NCBI GenBank assembly: GCA_038058095.1
Contig: JBBUBW010000009.1
Location: 1-50,042, forward strand
DNA from: Patescibacteria group bacterium
Lineage (GTDB): Bacteria; Patescibacteriota; Minisyncoccia; UBA6257; 2-01-FULL-56-20
DNA: 50,042 nt
Direction of reading: 5' to 3'
Made by a program: the position numbers and the translations under genes. A model generated the notes under the pieces. The model was given only the letters and a program-made list of their open reading frames with translations. It had not been told where the DNA came from and ran no database searches. Positions 22-38,699 of the stretch are shown piece by piece (the stretch's first letter is position 1; every line of letters begins with the position of its first letter).

Positions 22-93
22 TCCCCCTGGAAGGAATCGGACCTTCGTCTTAGGTTTCGGAAACCTACATTCTATCCATTAAACTACAGGGGG
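22..93 (-). tRNA. tRNA-Arg (anticodon CCG), hand-folded
   Basis: The reverse complement folds as a cloverleaf. Acceptor CCCCCTG/CAGGGGG, D-arm GTTT-AATGGATA-GAAT, anticodon arm TAGGT-TTCCGAA-ACCTA, 4-nt variable loop, T-arm GAAGG-TCCGATT-CCTTC, discriminator A. No CCA is encoded. Confidence 0.7.
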
Positions 94-3807: not shown

Positions 3808-5019
3808 TTAATTTTGAAGTGCGCTCCGTGCTGTCTCGCCATCGCTCCACACCACCCTCTCTCCTCCGGCCATATGAATAAAGGGCTCGCTTCCTTTCCC
3901 GGTTATAACTACAACATCCCCCTCCTTCGCTAAATTTATCGCCTTCTTAATCGCTTCTCCCCTATCCAAAGTTTCAGAAACTTTTCCGTCATCTATTCCG
4001 GATTTTACATCCAATAAAATCTTCCGAGGATCCTCGTCATAAGGATCTTCATTAGTTAAAATTATCTCCGAGCAAAACTTTTGAGCGAGCGCCCCCATTT
4101 CCGCTCTCTTCCACTTATCGCGACCTCCGCCAGCCGAACCCAACACACAAATCAGTTTCCCTTTCGCTAAATTTTTTAGGTTCACATAAACCTTCTCTAA
4201 ACTCGCCGGCGTGTGCGCATAATCCACCACCACTGAAAAAGGATCTCTCTGAACAAACTCCATCCTTCCCGGCACTCCTGAAAATTTTAACCCTGCATCA
4301 CGAATCACTTCATTAGATACACGAAGGCTTTCTGCCACGGCCACTGCCGCCGCTAAATTTTCTTTATTAAAATCACTAGAAAATAAATAATGAATATTGT
4401 CAACAGAAGGAAAAATTTTCCTTAGGTCACTCTTTGAATAAAATTTTACTCGCTCCCCTTCATTTTTAAATTGGCTTTCAAAAAAATCCGCGCTCACATC
4501 ATCGCGATTAAAAAAAAGTTGGGCTTTTTGACTAAAAGCATATTTCAAAAAACTCAGCTTTGCCTCTCTATATTTTTCAAAAGATCCGTGAGACTCGATA
4601 TGCTCCGAAGCCAGATTAGTTAAAACCGCCATTCGCCAATTTACAAATCGATGCCTCGAAAAAACCACTCCCTCTGAAGTTACCTCGACTAGAGCATACC
4701 GACACCGAGCCTTAACGGCCCGCCTCAAAAATTTTTGGACAAACATCCTCCCTGGCATAGTATTGTTGGTTAAATTCTTTTCTTGACTATCGCCTACTCT
4801 AAAATAAAGAGAAGACAACACCGCCACTCTCTCTCCATTCGCTGTTAGAATATTATTCAAGACCTCAAGCATTGTTGTCTTCCCTTTTGTTCCGGTTACA
4901 CCGATTACGAAAATTTTTCGGCTCGGAAACAGATAAATCAACACTCCCAATAATGCCAATCCAAAATGATAACCCCGAACGATAAATTTAATTTTCCGTA
5001 AAAAATTCAAAAAAGCCAT
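3808..5019 (-). CDS. murE: Mur ligase family protein, MurE-like
   Basis: GVTGTKGKTT P-loop, an NTMPG motif (compare MurE TTPE) and TNEDPYDEDP (compare MurE DNPRxEDP). The ATG at 5019 is preferred over the TTG at 5091 because the palindromic repeat lies at 5057-5074. Confidence 0.6.
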   Translation of the reverse strand: MAFLNFLRKIKFIVRGYHFGLALLGVLIYLFPSRKIFVIGVTGTKGKTTMLEVLNNILTANGERVAVLSSLYFRVGDSQEKNLTNNTMPGRMFVQKFLRRAVKARCRYALVEVTSEGVVFSRHRFVNWRMAVLTNLASEHIESHGSFEKYREAKLSFLKYAFSQKAQLFFNRDDVSADFFESQFKNEGERVKFYSKSDLRKIFPSVDNIHYLFSSDFNKENLAAAVAVAESLRVSNEVIRDAGLKFSGVPGRMEFVQRDPFSVVVDYAHTPASLEKVYVNLKNLAKGKLICVLGSAGGGRDKWKRAEMGALAQKFCSEIILTNEDPYDEDPRKILLDVKSGIDDGKVSETLDRGEAIKKAINLAKEGDVVVITGKGSEPFIHMAGGERVVWSDGETARSALQN

Positions 5020-5056
5020 TAGTTGAATAATAATCGAAAAACAGCAATAAACAAAA

Positions 5057-5074
5057 ATGTTTAGCGCTAAACAT
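5057..5074. repeat. palindrome ATGTTTAGCGCTAAACAT, copy 1
   Basis: Perfect 18-bp palindrome, 22 bp with flanks. The 13 nt upstream (AATAAACAAAAAT...) are shared with copy 2. Confidence 0.9.
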
Positions 5075-5095
5075 TTATCCTCAACGAACAAGAAT

Positions 5096-5674
5096 TTACT
5101 TCGCCTTACCTGAAAGAATTTTTAAGGCCTCCTTAACTTTATCTTCTATTTTCAGTGAAGTATCTAATTTAGAAACGGCCAATCTGACTTGATCTCTTCT
5201 GTAGCCCAAACCCAAAAGAATATCCACTACCTCATTATTTGATTCCATTCCAATAACATCCGCGGAGTCTCCACTTACTCCAACGCGGCTCTTAAGTTCG
5301 AGGACTATTCTATCTGCTAATTTTTTACCAATGCCAACCGACTGTGCCAAAAGGTCAGCCCGCCCGGATCTTATAGCTGCCAAAATATCCTTTGGCCCGG
5401 AAGCATTCATAATCGCCATAGCTGATTTCGGACCAACCCCATTCACTAAATTCAAAAAGTCGAAAACCGAAAGCTCCTCCTGATCCAAAAAACCATAAAG
5501 ATCAACTTTATCTTCTTTTAAATAAAAATGAGTAAAAAGTCTTACTTGATCTCCTTCCTTTAATTGCGAAATTATCCGCTGAGGACAGGAGACCTTAAAT
5601 CCAATCCCGCCGACATCAACCACAACAAAACCCTGTTTTATAAATGAAATTTTACCGGCCAAACTATAAATCAT
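5096..5674 (-). CDS. ruvA: Holliday junction branch-migration complex subunit RuvA
   Basis: 192 aa. The N-terminus MIYSLAGKI...VVVDVGGIGFKV and the HhH region are typical of RuvA. Confidence 0.9.
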   Translation of the reverse strand: MIYSLAGKISFIKQGFVVVDVGGIGFKVSCPQRIISQLKEGDQVRLFTHFYLKEDKVDLYGFLDQEELSVFDFLNLVNGVGPKSAMAIMNASGPKDILAAIRSGRADLLAQSVGIGKKLADRIVLELKSRVGVSGDSADVIGMESNNEVVDILLGLGYRRDQVRLAVSKLDTSLKIEDKVKEALKILSGKAK

Positions 5675-31631: not shown

Positions 31632-31741
31632 TTTACTAGCTTCTATCTTTCAAAAACATTCCTCCGTCGTATTAATAATAAGTTATTCCCCAAGATTTCC
31701 CCATTACTAATTTTAAAATGATATAAAATACGTAAGCTTCT

Positions 31742-32320
31742 ATGGATCTCCAACCTCTTCAAACCAACAAATATAGCGGGAAAACAAAGGCTTATTCCCT
31801 AAAAACCTACCATTCCTTAGTCAATTGGATAACTTCCGGGCTAACCCTTAGGGAATGGTATCTGCACGCCCAAACCTACGGCACCACCTCCTTCGTAACC
31901 AACCGACTTATTTTCAGTTGTATTCTCGGTTTGCTAGTACCTCTAGTTCTTATCGGCTCCATAAACGGGCGCCTAGAAGATAATCTCATTTATCTTCACA
32001 ATTTAGGCCGAGTGGGCATTATCCCCAACCGACAAATTGGAACCACTAACCTTCCTCCTATTTTCGCAGCCATCGCTGAATGCGAATCCGGCGGCTCTCA
32101 ATATGATTCTTATGGTCAAGTGGTAAGAGGGCGAGTAAATCATCACGATGTTGGCCTTTACCAAATTAACGAAGTCATCCACCAAAACGCCATCGCCCAA
32201 ACCGGAGTTGATATCTATAACGAAGAAGGGAATGCCCAGTTCGCTCGCTATCTTTATGAAGCCGAAGGGCTTTACCCTTGGCGATCTTCCCAATATTGCT
32301 GGTCTCGATATTTAAATTAA
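31742..32320 (+). CDS. lytic transglycosylase-like protein (Rpf/SLT-type catalytic motif)
   Basis: 192 aa. The AECESGG...DVGLYQIN motif resembles transglycosylase-like/SLT domains. There is one internal hydrophobic segment. Confidence 0.55.
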   Translation: MDLQPLQTNKYSGKTKAYSLKTYHSLVNWITSGLTLREWYLHAQTYGTTSFVTNRLIFSCILGLLVPLVLIGSINGRLEDNLIYLHNLGRVGIIPNRQIGTTNLPPIFAAIAECESGGSQYDSYGQVVRGRVNHHDVGLYQINEVIHQNAIAQTGVDIYNEEGNAQFARYLYEAEGLYPWRSSQYCWSRYLN

Positions 32321-32332
32321 AAAGCGAAAGAA

Positions 32333-32397
32333 CCCCGTACTAAAATTCGACTTTTTCAGAGCTGGCAGTTTACGCTGTCGAAGTTTTAGTATCGGGG
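32333..32397. repeat. CCCCGTAC-family hairpin H5 (between convergent genes)
   Basis: Arms CCCCGTACTAAAATTCGAC and GTCGAAGTTTTAGTATCGGGG. It could also act as a bidirectional terminator. Confidence 0.6.
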
Positions 32398-33924
32398 CTA
32401 AACTTCCTCTCTTAGCCGGTAGCTGAAAGCTTCCGCTAAATGATTTTCCGAAACTCCTTCTTTTTCTTCCAAGTCCGCAATCGTGCGCGCCACTTTTAAT
32501 AATCGGTAATATCCTCGAGGAGAAAGCCGGGCTTTATCGAAAGTTTTCAAAAAATTCTCTGCCGCCGGCTCAAGCTGTATTAATTCTTCCGTTTGCTTTG
32601 CGCTCATCTCGGCATTGGTTTTGATTTTCAAATGGCCGAATCTTTTTTCTTGAACTTTTCGGACTGCCTGAATTCTTTTCTTTATTTCCAGACTGGTCGG
32701 TTTTAGATTTTTATTTTCTCTAAGCTCCGCGATTTTAACTCTCGGCACTTTTATTTGTAGATCAATCCGGTCAAGTAACGGCCCCGAAATTTTCTTTTGG
32801 TATCTCAACACTTCGTAAGCCGTGCACCGACATTCTTTTTCGTCATCGCCGTAAAAACCGCACGGGCAAGGGTTCATCGCCGCCACGAGCGAAAACTTCG
32901 CGGGGAAAATTAGCGTGCCCTTCGCGCGAGCGACGTGTACCACTCCCGATTCAAGCGGCTGTCTCAAAGATTCCAAAATATTTTTCTGGAACTCCGGCAC
33001 TTCGTCCAAAAAAAGTATTCCTCGATGAGCCAAACTAATTTCCCCCGGCTTAGGGTAACTGCCTCCGCCTACAACCGCGATAAGCGACGCCGTCTGGTGT
33101 GGCGTCCTGAAAGGCCTAATAGACATCAGCCCTCCCGGGTTAAGCCCCGCCGAGCTGTAAATTTTAGTTACCTCGATTGCTTCTTGAAGCGATAAGTCCG
33201 GCAAAATACCCACCATCGCTTGCGATAGCAAACTTTTTCCCACTCCCGGCGGACCGATCATCAGTAGGTTATGCCCGCCAGCCGCCGCGATTATCATCGC
33301 GCGCTTGGCATTTTCCTGTCCTTTAATTTCCGAAAAATCCGGCACCTCACTTGCCGGGGTTTTCATTGGATTAAAAACCGCCGGGCTAATTTCTTTTCTC
33401 TCTTCCAAAAAATCAATCGCTTCCTGTAGATTTTCTAGCGGAATCACTTTCAAATCTTTAACCACTGCCGCCTCGTTCGCATTCTCTTTTGGAAGCAGAA
33501 CATACTGAAAATTTTTATCTTTAGCCAACTGGGCAATATTGAGCGCTCCCGAAATCGGCCGTAGTCTTCCATCCAAAGCCAACTCTCCTAAAAGAATTTT
33601 ATCGCTTGCATCAAATTGTTTTATCTGCCCCGTCGAAAGCAAATATCCAAGCGCGATTGCCAAGTCGTACTGCGACCCGGCTTTTTTAACATCGGCGGGC
33701 GCCAAGTTAATAGTGATTTTCCTGTTTTCACGGTTCGGCGGTTTCACTCCCGCGTTTTTAAGCGCTGAGTTTACCCGCTCCTTAGCTTCGTTCAAAGCCT
33801 TATCCGCCAGCCCTACTATATTAAACGCATGAAGGCCGACGTTTAAGTCAACCTCCACTTCAATTAACTGCGCGTTGATCCCTTCCAGTTCCGCTGAGTA
33901 AACTTTTGATAAGTTCTTAATCAT
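32398..33924 (-). CDS. comM: YifB/ComM family Mg-chelatase-like AAA+ ATPase
   Basis: Lon-like N-terminus, Walker A GPPGVGKS, and LFLDE. The ATG at 33924 (MIKNL...) is preferred. Confidence 0.85.
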   Translation of the reverse strand: MIKNLSKVYSAELEGINAQLIEVEVDLNVGLHAFNIVGLADKALNEAKERVNSALKNAGVKPPNRENRKITINLAPADVKKAGSQYDLAIALGYLLSTGQIKQFDASDKILLGELALDGRLRPISGALNIAQLAKDKNFQYVLLPKENANEAAVVKDLKVIPLENLQEAIDFLEERKEISPAVFNPMKTPASEVPDFSEIKGQENAKRAMIIAAAGGHNLLMIGPPGVGKSLLSQAMVGILPDLSLQEAIEVTKIYSSAGLNPGGLMSIRPFRTPHQTASLIAVVGGGSYPKPGEISLAHRGILFLDEVPEFQKNILESLRQPLESGVVHVARAKGTLIFPAKFSLVAAMNPCPCGFYGDDEKECRCTAYEVLRYQKKISGPLLDRIDLQIKVPRVKIAELRENKNLKPTSLEIKKRIQAVRKVQEKRFGHLKIKTNAEMSAKQTEELIQLEPAAENFLKTFDKARLSPRGYYRLLKVARTIADLEEKEGVSENHLAEAFSYRLREEV

Positions 33925-34692: not shown

Positions 34693-34743
34693 ATGAAACG
34701 AGTATTTAGTGGGTTTTTAGAGTCCATTAAATACTCGTTTCAT
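34693..34743 (+). promoter_or_regulatory. 5' leader hairpin of target gene 1
   Basis: ATGAAACGAGTATTTA...TAAATACTCGTTTCAT forms a perfect 16-bp stem. A homologous stem lies in the leader of target 2. Confidence 0.55.
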
Positions 34744-34804: not shown

Positions 34805-35575
34805 ATGGAACCCATCGTGAGCCGTACCCTGTCAGTGCACAACGAGCACGAATTTCTTTTAAAGCTCGAAGCCGCAGGTCTCAACCAAGCACTTTCCCAG
34901 AGAGTCGTTGACTCAAAGGAGAATGATCTCGGCAAGAAAATAGTGAGACTCATCGAGAACGGCGGTTTCGAACCGACGACGAGCCAAAAACGCGCCCGCG
35001 AGATCATGGGGCGCAACATGTTCGGCGTCGAAGAAGCAATCCGGCATTTCGGCGTGAATCCCACGAGGCAACAGGCCGCCGCTCTTTCGGAAATCCCATT
35101 TTCCGAGGCAACCCTCGAGCAGTGCAAGAACACGCACGTTCTCGTTGCGGTCTTCCCCCTCTCGATCCTCGAGATTCGCGGTAAGGTTCCCAGTGACCAG
35201 CATCTGTTTTATGTTCAAGACTGGTACAACAAGGAATCCTTCGCCAAAGACAAAGGGGAACTGGAGTGGCAGCTCATTTGCAAAACTCCCGTCGACAACT
35301 CGACGTCGAGGACGTGGGACGAGCAACAGGCTTTGCTCTCCGACAAAGATCAGACGCCCAAAGCTCGTGTGATGGTCTACGCGATCATCTGCCATTTCCT
35401 CTCGACAGGCGAACGGCTGTTCGAGAAAATCTACGTTCGCTGTTCGGATGTGGATTCGGACGGCCGCCGGGTCCTCGTCGGTCGCTTCGCTTCCGACGGC
35501 TTGCTCGTCAACGACCTCTGGGACGGCCACCGCTACGACAACATCGGCCTCGCCTCTGCCCGGAAGTCCGAGTAG
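34805..35575 (+). CDS. DGR target protein 1 (VR-bearing, no signal peptide)
   Basis: AGGAGG lies 7 nt before the ATG at 34805. The C-terminus ...VDSDGRRVLVGRFASDGLLVNDLWDGHRYDNIGLASARKSE is encoded by VR1. Confidence 0.85.
   Translation: MEPIVSRTLSVHNEHEFLLKLEAAGLNQALSQRVVDSKENDLGKKIVRLIENGGFEPTTSQKRAREIMGRNMFGVEEAIRHFGVNPTRQQAAALSEIPFSEATLEQCKNTHVLVAVFPLSILEIRGKVPSDQHLFYVQDWYNKESFAKDKGELEWQLICKTPVDNSTSRTWDEQQALLSDKDQTPKARVMVYAIICHFLSTGERLFEKIYVRCSDVDSDGRRVLVGRFASDGLLVNDLWDGHRYDNIGLASARKSE
35448..35568 (+). repeat. DGR variable repeat VR1
   Basis: 121 bp that aligns without gaps to the TR. There are 20 mismatches and 15 fall at TR adenines. The 3' 75 bp differ only at adenines. Confidence 0.9.
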
Positions 35576-35587
35576 AACCTTGAAACT

Positions 35588-35604
35588 GGAGGATTTGATC
35601 CTCC
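35588..35604 (+). other. hairpin downstream of VR1 (GGAGGAT-TTG-ATCCTCC)
   Basis: It starts 20 nt after the end of VR/TR homology. The same sequence occurs after VR2. It is absent after the TR. Confidence 0.6.
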
Positions 35605-35614
35605 TCATTACCTT

Positions 35615-35655
35615 GAGCCTCCGCGCGATTTTTTCGCCGGAGGCTCATCTTATTT
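35615..35655 (+). terminator. rho-independent terminator of target gene 1
   Basis: GAGCCTCCG...CGGAGGCTC stem followed by ATCTTATTTTATT. Confidence 0.6.
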
Positions 35656-35731
35656 TATTAACTCGTCAGTAAGAAACTAAAAAGAATATCAGCTAACTTA
35701 GTTATTCCCCTTTTTACAACGAGCCCTAGCA

Positions 35732-35760
35732 TTGACACAGAGCCCATTATTCTGTAAAAT
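35732..35760 (+). promoter_or_regulatory. sigma70-type promoter TTGACA-17 nt-TAAAAT (target gene 2)
   Basis: Hexamers at 35732-35737 and 35755-35760. Confidence 0.6.
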
Positions 35761-35805
35761 ATTTCTGCTCTTTAATAATCAAATATTCGAGATTCTGTCT
35801 ATGGC

Positions 35806-35862
35806 ATGAGGCGAGTGTTTAAAATGTTATAACTCATATAGTTTTTTAAGCACTCGCCTCAT
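35806..35862 (+). promoter_or_regulatory. 5' leader hairpin of target gene 2
   Basis: ATGAGGCGAGTG...CACTCGCCTCAT forms a 12-bp stem. Confidence 0.5.
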
Positions 35863-35922
35863 AAAAAGCGAGTCTGAACCGGACAGATATCCGATAAATT
35901 TCAAATCAGAAGGAGGCACACG

Positions 35923-36735
35923 ATGCCACAAAGCATCGCACACCCCAAACCGACTGCCGTGCTTGACGGGACGGCAAAGTTTTTCCGCGTGATGGCGAAC
36001 GCCGGTGTTCCCTTTTCGGCGTTTACTCCACCAATGCAGAGCGTAGCGAAAAGAGCCAACCTCGCGGAGTTCCTCAAGCTCGGTTGTCCCAAAGTCGACG
36101 GCAATGGCGTTATCAACACAACGCCATCGGAACACGACCTTGCGCGCCTCATTTTAGCCAGCGATTTCATCACGCCGGAAGAAGTGGCGCAAACTCGCGG
36201 ACTCACCTATGCGGATGAGCAACTCGAAGCGTTGCAAACAAGCCTGCCGCCACTCGAAGTGATCACTTGGTGTCGCGGGAACGGTTACTTACTGCTTCCC
36301 AATCCACCCGAGGCAATGTCGCTTCTCGGAGTCCGAGATCTCAACCGAGCCCTCTTTTCTTCAAAGGAAGGCGGGTGGTATGCTGACCAAGCTTTCGCGG
36401 CGAAGGAAACGACTGAGGCCGCAACTTGGCTTATGATCCGCAAGGGCATCGTGCCGAACTCCACGGATAAGAAATGGAAGGAACAAATTCCACTCATCTC
36501 TGACGTTGAACGGGTACCGAATGCCGCCGAGTTCTCCTGGGCGCTCACGATCTACAAAGAAGTCCGGGGCGTCTACCTTATGGGTGGAATCTACGCCCGC
36601 ACTTCAAGTGTGGATTCGGACGGCCTCCGGGTCCGCGTCGGCCACTTCGATTCCGACGGCTTGGACGTCCACAGCTACTGGGACGACCATCGCTATGACG
36701 GCTTCGGTCTCGCCTCCGCTCGGAAGTCCGAGTAG
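35923..36735 (+). CDS. DGR target protein 2 (paralog of target 1)
   Basis: AGGAGG lies before the ATG. The C-terminus ...VDSDGLRVRVGHFDSDGLDVHSYWDDHRYDGFGLASARKSE is encoded by VR2. Confidence 0.85.
   Translation: MPQSIAHPKPTAVLDGTAKFFRVMANAGVPFSAFTPPMQSVAKRANLAEFLKLGCPKVDGNGVINTTPSEHDLARLILASDFITPEEVAQTRGLTYADEQLEALQTSLPPLEVITWCRGNGYLLLPNPPEAMSLLGVRDLNRALFSSKEGGWYADQAFAAKETTEAATWLMIRKGIVPNSTDKKWKEQIPLISDVERVPNAAEFSWALTIYKEVRGVYLMGGIYARTSSVDSDGLRVRVGHFDSDGLDVHSYWDDHRYDGFGLASARKSE
36609..36728 (+). repeat. DGR variable repeat VR2 (more diverged)
   Basis: 23 mismatches to the TR, 14 at TR adenines and 9 elsewhere. Three non-A changes and one adenine-site change fall in the 3' IMH-like segment. 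Confidence 0.8.
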
Positions 36736-36748
36736 AACCTTGAAACCT

Positions 36749-36765
36749 GGAGGATTTGATCCTCC
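36749..36765 (+). other. hairpin downstream of VR2 (GGAGGAT-TTG-ATCCTCC)
   Basis: Identical to the hairpin after VR1. Confidence 0.6.
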
Positions 36766-36775
36766 TCATTACCTT

Positions 36776-36826
36776 GAGCCTCCGGCGCGAATTTTTTTCG
36801 CACACGCCGGGGGCTCTTTCTTTTTA
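36776..36826 (+). terminator. rho-independent terminator of target gene 2
   Basis: GAGCCTCCGGCG...CGCCGGGGGCTC stem followed by TTTCTTTTTAT. Confidence 0.65.
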
Positions 36827-37133
36827 TAAACCTTGTGATATGCTTTTTTTATCTTGCTAATGCAGGCGCGGTTACGGCTTCGCCTCGCGAGATATCTCAC
36901 CTTTGCCTGCCCGCCGAAGTTATCGGCGCAGGCGGGAGATGTCGCCAGAGCGCCACCGTTTACGGATTGCGGCAGAGCGCGATGAAGGATAGAGATGGAC
37001 TTCTTGCTCGCTTCTAGTGGAGATGTCCCGCCAAATCGGGACTGCTCTCGAATAAAATTCAGGAACGAAAGGCAATAGGCTCCTTTTGAGCGGTAACCCT
37101 TAAGTTTCGGTGCCATGGGCGGTAGCGGGCAAT

Positions 37134-37254
37134 ATGTGGATTCGGACGGCAACCATGTCTACGTTGGCAACTTCGATTCTGACGGCTTGAACGTCAACAA
37201 CAACTGGGACGACAACCGCAACGACAACATCGGCCTCGCCTCTGCCCGGAAGTC
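37134..37254 (+). repeat. DGR template repeat (TR)
   Basis: 121 bp with 31 adenines and 9 AAC codons in the VR reading frame (...NHVYVGNFDSDGLNVNNNWDDNRNDNIGLASARKS). No plausible ORF leads into it; a stop lies at 37094-37096 in frame. Confidence 0.9.
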
Positions 37255-37260
37255 ACCCCT

Positions 37261-37650
37261 CTATTCGTTTTTGAATGCCCCGCCAAGCGGGGCATTCTCT
37301 CGTCGGTCTTTCGAGGATTTTATCCAGCCACCCAACATCCGGCCGATCTCATCCACCGGTTCTTCGAGTGAAACGTATTTCTTGTTGTCGATTACCCTGA
37401 CCTCTTTCATTAACCGGAGAAATACTCGCAAAAAGTTTAGCTTGAGACTGACTTTTTCAAGGATCGGCACTTTCTCTGATTTGTAAGTTTGACTCGCAAG
37501 GAGGATGCCTTCAAGGATGTCGAGAATAATATTCTCGCATCGTTGCCAGATGCTGTGGCGATCCTGTTTAGTAATACCATCCCGATAACCATAAAAAGTT
37601 TTATATAAATCATAGGTTTTTTTGAAGATCGGGATATCGAAGTCGTCCAT
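37261..37650 (-). CDS. avd: DGR accessory variability determinant (Avd), four-helix bundle
   Basis: 129 aa. Basic helices and the C-terminal EIGRMLGGWIK compare with phage BPP-1 Avd EVGRILGSWIA (recalled). It lies directly between the TR and the RT. Confidence 0.8.
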   Translation of the reverse strand: MDDFDIPIFKKTYDLYKTFYGYRDGITKQDRHSIWQRCENIILDILEGILLASQTYKSEKVPILEKVSLKLNFLRVFLRLMKEVRVIDNKKYVSLEEPVDEIGRMLGGWIKSSKDRRENAPLGGAFKNE

Positions 37651-37668: not shown

Positions 37669-38568
37669 ATGAAAATTTATAATAATTTATTTGAACAGAT
37701 TACCTCTTTGGAGAATCTTTTTTCTGCGTGGGACGCTTTCAAGTCCGACAAACGGAAAAAACCGGACGTAATGCGGTTTGAATGGCAACTTGAGGAAAAT
37801 ATTTTCAGGTTGCACCGGGAACTCAAAAGTGCCACGTACAGGCATGGCCCGTACTCCGGTTTTTATGTAACCGATCCCAAACAACGCCATATCCATAAAG
37901 CTTTGGTGCGAGATCGGGTTTTGCATCACGCGGTTTTTTCGGTGATCAACCCCATTTTTGAGGAGATGTTTATCCCAACGTCGTTTTCGTGCCGAGTGGG
38001 GTATGGCACTCATCGCGGCGTTGAAGCCCTTGCTGGCATGATGCGCCAAGTGAGTAAAAACAACACGCGGACGTGCCACGTATTGAAGTGCGATGTGAGA
38101 AAGTTTTTTGACAGCGTGGACCACCGGATACTCCTCGGTATTCTTACGAAACGTATTAAAGATGAAAAAGTGATGTGGCTCCTGCGATCTATTGTTGAAA
38201 GCTATTCGAGTGAAATAGGGAGTGGAAAAGGGATTCCGATAGGGAATTTGACCTCCCAGCTTTTTGCCAATATCTACATGAATGAGTTCGATAGGTATAT
38301 GAAACATATGGTGAAGGCAAAACACTATCTGCGATACACCGATGACTTTGCGATTGTTTCTGAAAACCGAACTTATTTAGAGGAACTACTGCCTAAGATC
38401 AAAGAATTTCTTTCAAACAACCTGGCAATCAATCTACACCCCAATAAAATCATACTTTCGACCTTCTGTCAAGGCGTAGATTTTCTTGGTTACGTTTCTT
38501 TTCCTCAATACCGACTCCTCCGTACAAAAACAAGGTGGAGAATTTTTTCGAGACTGCGAAAAAACTAA
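37669..38568 (+). CDS. DGR-type reverse transcriptase (C-terminus apparently interrupted)
   Basis: RT motifs LKCDVRKFFDSVDH, GIPIGNLTSQLFANIYMNEFD (DGR-specific [ILV]GxxxSQ) and YLRYTDDFAIV. The ORF ends at a TAA right after an A AAA AAC run. Confidence 0.9.
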   Translation: MKIYNNLFEQITSLENLFSAWDAFKSDKRKKPDVMRFEWQLEENIFRLHRELKSATYRHGPYSGFYVTDPKQRHIHKALVRDRVLHHAVFSVINPIFEEMFIPTSFSCRVGYGTHRGVEALAGMMRQVSKNNTRTCHVLKCDVRKFFDSVDHRILLGILTKRIKDEKVMWLLRSIVESYSSEIGSGKGIPIGNLTSQLFANIYMNEFDRYMKHMVKAKHYLRYTDDFAIVSENRTYLEELLPKIKEFLSNNLAINLHPNKIILSTFCQGVDFLGYVSFPQYRLLRTKTRWRIFSRLRKN

Positions 38569-38570
38569 AA

Positions 38571-38699
38571 AGTTACCGCGGTGAATTGATTTCAAGAACT
38601 TCTCTCGAGTAATCCCTGCAGTCCTATCTCGGCGTTCTTTCTCACGGCAATACTTTCAAATTACGCGAGAGTATTCTTAATGAATTCTGGTTTAGTTGA
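38571..38699 (+). pseudogene. out-of-frame remnant of the RT C-terminus
   Basis: The -1 frame reads SYRGELISRTSLE*SLQSYLGVLSHGNTFKLRESILNEFWFS*. As far as I recall, it resembles the conserved C-terminal tail of DGR RTs. Confidence 0.5.

Follow-up and report, generated by a model that had tools for sequence, protein, structure and literature searches.

The interval 34805-37254 of the window (the whole stretch of 50,042 nucleotides analysed here, contig JBBUBW010000009.1, from a Patescibacteria metagenome-assembled genome (MAG) of Hainich groundwater) holds the targets and the template of a chromosomal diversity-generating retroelement (DGR), composed of two target genes, one template repeat (TR), an antisense avd gene and a reverse transcriptase (RT) gene. 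Both target genes end in a variable repeat (VR1 and VR2), and both VRs differ from the TR at adenines and also at other bases. In this study, we argue that this mismatch pattern is probably a layered record of past writing events and not the decay of one target. The TR would have been altered at about ten positions, over its full length, relative to the version from which VR2 and nucleotides 1-47 of VR1 were written. The 3' 74 nucleotides of VR1 would have been rewritten later from the present TR, in a 3'-anchored tract whose 5' junction fell within the GACGGCTTG block. VR2 of the window would never have been rewritten from the present TR, most likely because homologous recombination brought in the cassette carrying it from a lineage whose TR was of an older type. 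The RT of this strain has since lost its last 44 residues, which would add to VR2 staying unrewritten. The observations behind this account are the mismatch counts, the agreement of VR2 with the TR of a relative, the lesions in the RT gene, a sister-strain VR2 that differs from the TR at adenines only and a divergent cassette with sharp edges.

Mismatches between template and variable repeats

TR, VR1 and VR2 were compared by ungapped alignment over 121 nucleotides. The TR (37134-37254, + strand) contains 31 adenines, all of them at codon positions 1 or 2, and nine AAC codons. VR1 (35448-35568, +) and VR2 (36608-36728, +) lie at the 3' ends of target gene 1 and target gene 2, and each stops 7 nucleotides short of the stop codon of its target. 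VR1 shows 20 mismatches to the TR, 15 at TR adenines and five elsewhere (positions 23, 27, 32, 35 and 47). From GACGGCTTG on (positions 48-121, 74 nucleotides) it differs from the TR at adenines only, and its last 26 nucleotides equal the TR. VR2 carries nine non-adenine mismatches (positions 23, 27, 32, 47, 83, 89, 101, 110 and 113) and 15 adenine mismatches, 24 in total; without the arbitrary first base these are 14 and 23, the latter being the BLAST figure too. Its last 26 nucleotides include four mismatches (96 A>T, 101 C>T, 110 T>C and 113 C>T). Non-adenine differences common to both VRs number four (TR/VR: CAT/CGG, TAC/C.C, GTT/GTC and TCT/TCC), and the five specific to VR2 are synonymous third-position transitions throughout. 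Chance does not explain the adenine bias of the mismatches (one-sided Fisher test, P = 4e-7 in VR1 and P = 2e-5 in VR2). The counts, the adenine shares and the four shared changes agree with an earlier reading of this DNA made from the sequence alone (the sequence-only reading), which had put the adenine-only 3' part of VR1 at 75 nucleotides.

Template states in related elements

A comparison with the TRs of relatives, as the sequence-only reading had suggested, was run to see which side of each mismatch had changed. The outgroup TRs came from the L095-L104 lineage, the closest (RT 83-87% and Avd 96% identical), from L008-L010 (RT 75-78%), L011 and L012, and from more distant elements. An RT-based scan of metagenome contigs yielded only relatives with RTs 48-67% identical; these served the analysis of the RNA upstream of the TR and were too distant to polarise TR states. 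At codon 9 the present TR reads TAC and the relatives' TRs read AAC, with TAC in the distant L030 only. Codon 10 is GTT in the present TR and GTC in the relatives, and codon 15 is TCT in the present TR and TCC in the relatives (TCT in L012). This supports placing three of the four shared non-adenine differences (TAC, GTT and TCT) as changes on the TR side. With an earlier template reading AAC, codon 9 requires nothing beyond ordinary adenine substitutions to give CTC in VR1 and CGC in VR2.

The same holds for the 3' part of VR2. Codons 27, 29, 33, 36 and 37 of the closest relative's TR read AAT, AAT, GGT, TCC and GCT, which are exactly the VR2-specific states. Eight of the nine non-adenine mismatch positions of VR2 are positions where the closest outgroup TR departs from the present TR, with the same base at seven (P = 1.6e-7 in a hypergeometric test over all positions, and 6e-5 when third codon positions alone are considered). 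No private non-adenine change is left in VR2, and VR1 has a single one (GGT, codon 11). Because the non-adenine states of VR2 match the relative's TR and none is private, VR2 is best described as a clean copy of another TR version. As judged from these alignments, that version and the present TR would be separated by about ten differences spread across the whole repeat. According to the literature, non-adenine changes of the TR are copied faithfully into the target (PMC12875486). The sequence-only reading had offered a mutation of the TR after the 5' part of the VRs was last overwritten. The TR-side change at TAC, GTT and TCT bears this out, and the restriction to the 5' end does not stand, as the five 3' states of VR2 also match the relative's TR; a TR change that spans the entire length is the version supported.

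L104 offers a second example from nature, in which the TR has changed and the target has not yet received the change. Private non-adenine differences stand at codons 13, 16 and 26 of the L104 TR (about 1159-1279 when the locus is reverse-complemented), and the L104 VR lacks all three. Some VRs in the L095-L104 lineage have the L104-type state. As a separate observation, the RT of L011 (a Microflora Danica MAG; 4460-5495, - strand) gives matches in two frames that meet near residue 180, either through a frameshifted RT or through a sequencing error, and the TR/VR pair of L011 shows adenine-only differences save at one 3' position. A scan for the TR/VR pattern in species-representative genomes found L011 alone, the window's own genome not being among the matches, and the same scan of viral contigs found no matches.

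Sister strains and the reach of VR2

Two sister strains from Hainich well H41, L092 and L105, have a TR identical to that of the window and an intact RT of 343 residues. All 20 mismatches between their VR2 and the TR fall at adenines, from codon 2 to codon 32, and this VR2 reads CAT, TAC, GTT, TCT, GGC, TCT and GCC like the present TR. The element can therefore reach all of the VR2 position, and replacement over the full length, 5' end included, does occur. In VR1 the same strains retain the old 5' states CGG, GTC, GGT and TCC, with a 3' part that differs from the TR at adenines only. Over 4.2 kb, L092 and L105 are separated by 15 differences, of which 14 fall in VR1, inside which the L092 assembly is broken by a run of Ns. 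VR1 is thus the polymorphic repeat where the RT is intact, while target gene 1 outside VR1 shows no difference between the window and L092 or L105. A search for target 1 homologues returned no additional near-identical VR1 variants.

The sequence-only reading took VR2 for a target drifting out of reach, that is, a decaying target which collects random substitutions, its 3' end resembling the initiation of mutagenic homing (IMH) site included, while an active element goes on rewriting VR1. Nine non-adenine mismatches in VR2, three of them within the last 26 nucleotides, would fit such decay, as would the clean 3' part of VR1 and the situation in the RT-intact sister strains, in which VR1 is polymorphic and VR2 is identical in both contigs. 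However, decay does not predict that the closest relative's TR departs from the present one at eight of the nine mismatch positions, nor that VR2 is free of private changes. The last 25 nucleotides of VR2 equal the sequence common to TR and VRs in the L095-L104 lineage, where the element works. The hairpin and the terminator downstream of VR2 are intact. The spacer before this hairpin differs from that of VR1 by one extra C, which is also present beside T1-type VRs that vary between samples in the L095-L104 lineage; in the BPP-1 study, VR and hairpin lay 4 to 34 bp apart depending on the element, and an insertion of 3 bp was tolerated (PMC3240598). Moreover, VR2 has been fully rewritten in the sister strains, and the RT that would be rewriting VR1 is broken in the strain of the window. 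We see no sign of VR2 being out of reach, the sequence comparison does not support decay, and we consider a decaying VR2 quite improbable.

A known element of DGR targets is a hairpin that follows the VR (PMC3240598). Here, a type A hairpin (GGAGGAT-TTG-ATCCTCC) follows VR1 at 35588-35604 (+), and the same hairpin, with the additional C in its spacer, follows VR2 at 36749-36765 (+). Terminator hairpins lie behind them at 35615-35646 and 36776-36816. The hairpin stem is conserved in relatives through compensatory changes, as types A and B. Together with the GC-rich 3' ends of the VRs, the two hairpins are putative target recognition elements.

A divergent cassette around target gene 2

The differences between the window and L092/L105 are concentrated in a block at 35857-36770 (+) that comprises the promoter region, target gene 2, VR2 and its flank, and the sequences on either side are 100% identical. 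Within this cassette, identity is 88-93% in most 100-nucleotide windows and 74% across VR2, and the two alleles are about 7% diverged. Both are about equally far from the L095-L104 lineage. The allele of the window has the type A hairpin, as VR1 does, while the sister allele has a type B hairpin (GAGGGC-TTGA-CCCTC), as do T2 of the L095-L104 lineage and L011. By its sequence pattern, the cassette would be the trace left by homologous recombination with a lineage at a divergence of about 7%. This divergence resembles the gap of roughly 8% between the inferred template of VR2 and the present TR. Import into the strain of the window is the direction of exchange that best explains a VR2 without private changes. 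A homologue search for target 2 found the sister strain's allele (88%) as the sole one closer than 80%, and no donor of a window-type cassette.

The identical hairpin flanks had suggested copying from VR1 to VR2 within the genome. A recent copy is excluded by the many differences at adenine sites, and the extra C of the VR2 flank, being present in relatives, also speaks against it. Separately, we observed that upstream of the DGR the identity between the window and L092 falls to 90% (31632-32319) and 97% (32314-33924) in a backbone of about 99-100%; these blocks are further signs of mosaic recombination in the population.

History of VR1

In VR1, no old state is found beyond position 47 and no new state before position 83. 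This is most simply read as a partial tract anchored at the 3' end. The known behaviour of BPP-1 leaves room for such tracts, as at least 8 bp of identity suffice for the 5' junction of cDNA integration and internal sites can be used (PMC3240598). Within this genome, the data support a rewriting of VR1 more recent than that of VR2. The sequence-only reading had alternatively proposed that cDNA replacement usually stops before the 5' end. The 5' relic of VR1, present in three different alleles, speaks for this at VR1; as a general rule it fails, given the full-length rewriting of VR2 in the sister strains.

Several points weigh against the layered record as we propose it. The two VR1 alleles disagree at three sites in the 5' part (positions 1 and 2 of codon 9, position 2 of codon 14) and yet keep the adjacent old non-adenine states, a combination that a single contiguous tract from the present TR cannot produce. 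At codon 7, CAT is shared by the present TR and the closest outgroup TR, and every old-type VR reads CGG, a state also found in the L011 and L030 TRs; a parallel change or recombination is needed at this codon. TR-side changes (about ten) greatly outnumber private VR-side changes (one), an excess which points to an en-bloc exchange over clock-like drift, with either direction of exchange. Finally, the loss of RT function discussed below is read from the truncation of 44 thumb residues.

The differences among VR1 alleles raise two alternatives. In the first, cDNA integration in this DGR class is patchy (mosaic or short-patch) instead of proceeding in one contiguous tract. L092 VR1 equals the present TR at codon 9 (TAC) and codon 14 (GAT), where the allele of the window and L105 differs, and it holds the old CGG, GTC, GGT and TCC amid these TR-like 5' sites. 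If integration were patchy, relic non-adenine mismatches could last indefinitely inside an actively varied repeat. We nevertheless hold this to be rather doubtful. The second alternative dispenses with partial tracts. The TR would have passed through successive versions, from T0 to T1 with the new 3' states and then to T2 with the new 5' states, each VR being a full-length copy of one of them, or else a second TR elsewhere would serve VR1. This would explain why VR1 alleles differ at 5' adenine sites, codon 9 position 1 (A in the relatives' TRs) included, with common old non-adenine states, and the sister VR2 shows that full-length replacement occurs. However, all five 3' changes of the TR would have to predate all five or six 5' changes, which has a chance of 1 in 252 if the order is random, or two separate en-bloc events would be required. 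Codon 11 would have to go from GGC to GGT and back to GGC, and the 50-kb window holds no second TR, RT or Avd. Such a succession is therefore unlikely in our view, and we retain the 3'-anchored rewriting of VR1 as part of the layered record.

Lesions in the reverse transcriptase gene

The RT open reading frame (ORF) of the window (37669-38568, +) has an RVT_1 domain (PF00078, E = 3.7e-23) with IGNLTSQ and YTDD motifs, and its best PDB match is the Bordetella phage RT, bRT (8ub7, E = 2e-49). It stops after 299 codons, while the other homologues among the 120 listed have 337-408 residues, two fragments of about 330 residues excepted. Two lesions account for this. One A is lost from an A7 run, which leaves A6 at 38559-38564 (+) and shifts the frame, and a CAA (Gln) codon is changed to TAA at 38610-38612 (+), within a 3' remnant of the RT that extends to 38699. 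Three assemblies of this RT-broken strain, which belongs to the population of well H43, combine the A6 run with the TAA: those of the window, ERZ1292626 and Logan ERR3858116. By contig, the pair is seen in the window, L001/L004 and L002. A7 and CAA are found in four contigs that are otherwise about 99.9% identical and encode an RT of 343 residues (L092 and L105 from well H41, L093 and L094). The 44 missing residues align past residue 287 of bRT, in the thumb. In the structure of bRT with Avd and RNA, the thumb touches the template:primer duplex and the 'Thumb Ring' RNA (bioRxiv 10.1101/2023.10.23.563531). The truncated RT is likely inactive. In agreement with this, the contigs of the RT-broken strain show no variation in the repeats, VR1 and VR2 being identical in L004 and VR2 in L005, despite five single-nucleotide polymorphisms elsewhere in 20 kb.

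The frameshift falls within a homopolymer, and A AAA AAC is a heptamer of the classic slippery form on which a -1 ribosomal slip would restore the frame. The lesions might thus be assembly errors, or be bypassed, in an element that is fully active. We regard this as extremely unlikely, since the identical A6 run and TAA recur across the three assemblies and the VRs do not vary among RT-broken assemblies. Rescue by a -1 frameshift is ruled out by the TAA, which lies 17 codons downstream in the restored frame, so that the conserved SLQSYLGVLSHGNTFKL end would still be lost. The element is probably a DGR by descent that has been disabled in this strain. Because the RT lacks these 44 residues, probably neither VR1 nor VR2 is live here. 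Of the one live target that the sequence-only reading saw in VR1, the liveness holds for the lineage and is doubtful for this genome, with its frameshift and nonsense codon.

Layout of the element and RNA structures

Target gene 1 (34805-35575, +) encodes 256 residues from the ATG at 34805, within a longer ORF from 34742, and target gene 2 (35923-36735, +) encodes 270 residues; both were taken from the ORF list. Target gene 2 is a distant paralogue of target gene 1 (about 30% identity). The family of target gene 1 has about 925 homologues in Patescibacteria, and a Pfam search found no domain in it. Its AlphaFold model (predicted local distance difference test, pLDDT, 88) has no Foldseek match in the PDB at E <= 0.001. 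Among the weak matches, EgtB and FGE prevail, and the DGR variable proteins TvpA and TaqVP appear at E = 2.4-2.6. Near-perfect inverted repeats at 34693-34743 (ATGAAACGAGTATTTAGTGG...) and 35806-35862 (ATGAGGCGAGTGTTTAAAATGTTATA...), 60-80 nucleotides upstream of each target start, resemble one another (82% over 51 nucleotides) and may be a shared operator or 5'-UTR hairpin of both targets. A scan for promoters and terminators gave sites no commoner than in shuffled sequence. TR, VR1 and VR2 are the only copies of the repeat in the 50-kb window.

Immediately 5' of the TR, alignment covariation marks a structured non-coding RNA region (36812-37135, +). About 280 nucleotides of it are conserved among DGRs whose RTs are 53-87% identical. 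The fold has about ten helices with 66 pairs, 28 of them with compensatory changes, and 95% of the alignment cells are paired. None of 500 shuffles was as good, and no slid control came near. The outer helix closes at the TR edge. A hidden Markov model (HMM) that uses sequence only finds this RNA in 43 of 106 sequences, always on the RT strand and a few hundred nucleotides upstream of the RT. An Rfam search with it gave no match, nor did a search of the DGR region at a permissive threshold; the sole Rfam match of the window at the gathering level is a tRNA gene at 22-93 (-). From its position and conservation, the RNA may be an RT/Avd-binding domain specific to this class. The window has a private GC-rich hairpin of 31-32 nucleotides, GCCTGCCCGCCGAAGTTATCGGCGCAGGCGGG, at 36905-36936, which is inserted in a loop of this RNA and absent from all nine other aligned elements.

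On the other side of the TR, 19 nucleotides 3' of it, an 11-bp stem-loop GAATGCCCCGC-CAA-GCGGGGCATTC (37273-37297, +) falls inside the 3' end of the antisense avd (37261-37650, -; PF22296 bAvd, E = 2.8e-16). A preprint puts the Avd-binding stem-loop of most DGRs at the equivalent position 3' of the TR (bioRxiv 10.1101/2023.10.23.563531), and by analogy this stem-loop would occupy that place.

Comparison with known DGRs

The element is an ordinary DGR of Patescibacteria and leaves the known mechanism unchanged. It resembles the DGR of Bordetella phage BPP-1 (mtd-VR, avd, TR, brt) in the adenine-specific transfer from TR to VR, in the VR at the 3' end of the target ORF, in the Avd accessory protein, in an RT whose nearest solved structure is bRT, in the hairpin downstream of the VR and in the stem-loop just 3' of the TR. 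Short-homology 5' junctions that permit partial tracts are a further likeness (PMC3240598). Unlike the BPP-1 element, that of the window is chromosomal, in Patescibacteria, with two targets, a truncated RT in this strain and a conserved structured RNA of about 280 nucleotides 5' of the TR. Its TR and VR stay identical to the very end of their homology, and a distinct 21-bp IMH/IMH* pair with mismatches is missing. Its hairpin has a loop of 3-5 nucleotides about 20 nucleotides past the VR, in contrast to the GRNA tetraloop 4 nucleotides past the VR in BPP-1.

The element is also like the cellular DGRs of Patescibacteria (candidate phyla radiation, CPR), 'DGR clade 2' of Roux et al. 2021 (PMC8144416), a likeness that refers to host group, aquatic/groundwater biome and cell-encoded location. 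For this clade, below-average signs of recent activity were reported (PMC8144416). Thousands of RT homologues, 50-87% identical, are found in Patescibacteria (CPR) genomes. The closest of the systems compared, the L095-L104 lineage from Rifle and other groundwater, has the same architecture with T1-type and T2-type targets, flank hairpins and upstream RNA, and its TR bears the states found in VR2 of the window. Unlike in the window, its RT is intact and each of its two targets shows variation from sample to sample that is almost confined to adenines; its T2 hairpin is of type B and that of the window of type A.

Implications

Non-adenine mismatches between TR and VR are usually taken as noise or as marks of a dying target. 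Here they would be dated imprints of earlier templates, and therefore retrohoming events can be ordered in time. The imprints also point to a 3'-anchored tract in a natural population and to recombination of target cassettes between strains. One aquifer that harbours near-identical strains with an intact and a freshly broken RT offers a natural control for the effect of a DGR on its targets. This may be of use to DGR specialists and for the annotation of DGR activity: where close relatives are available, the history of such an element can be read.

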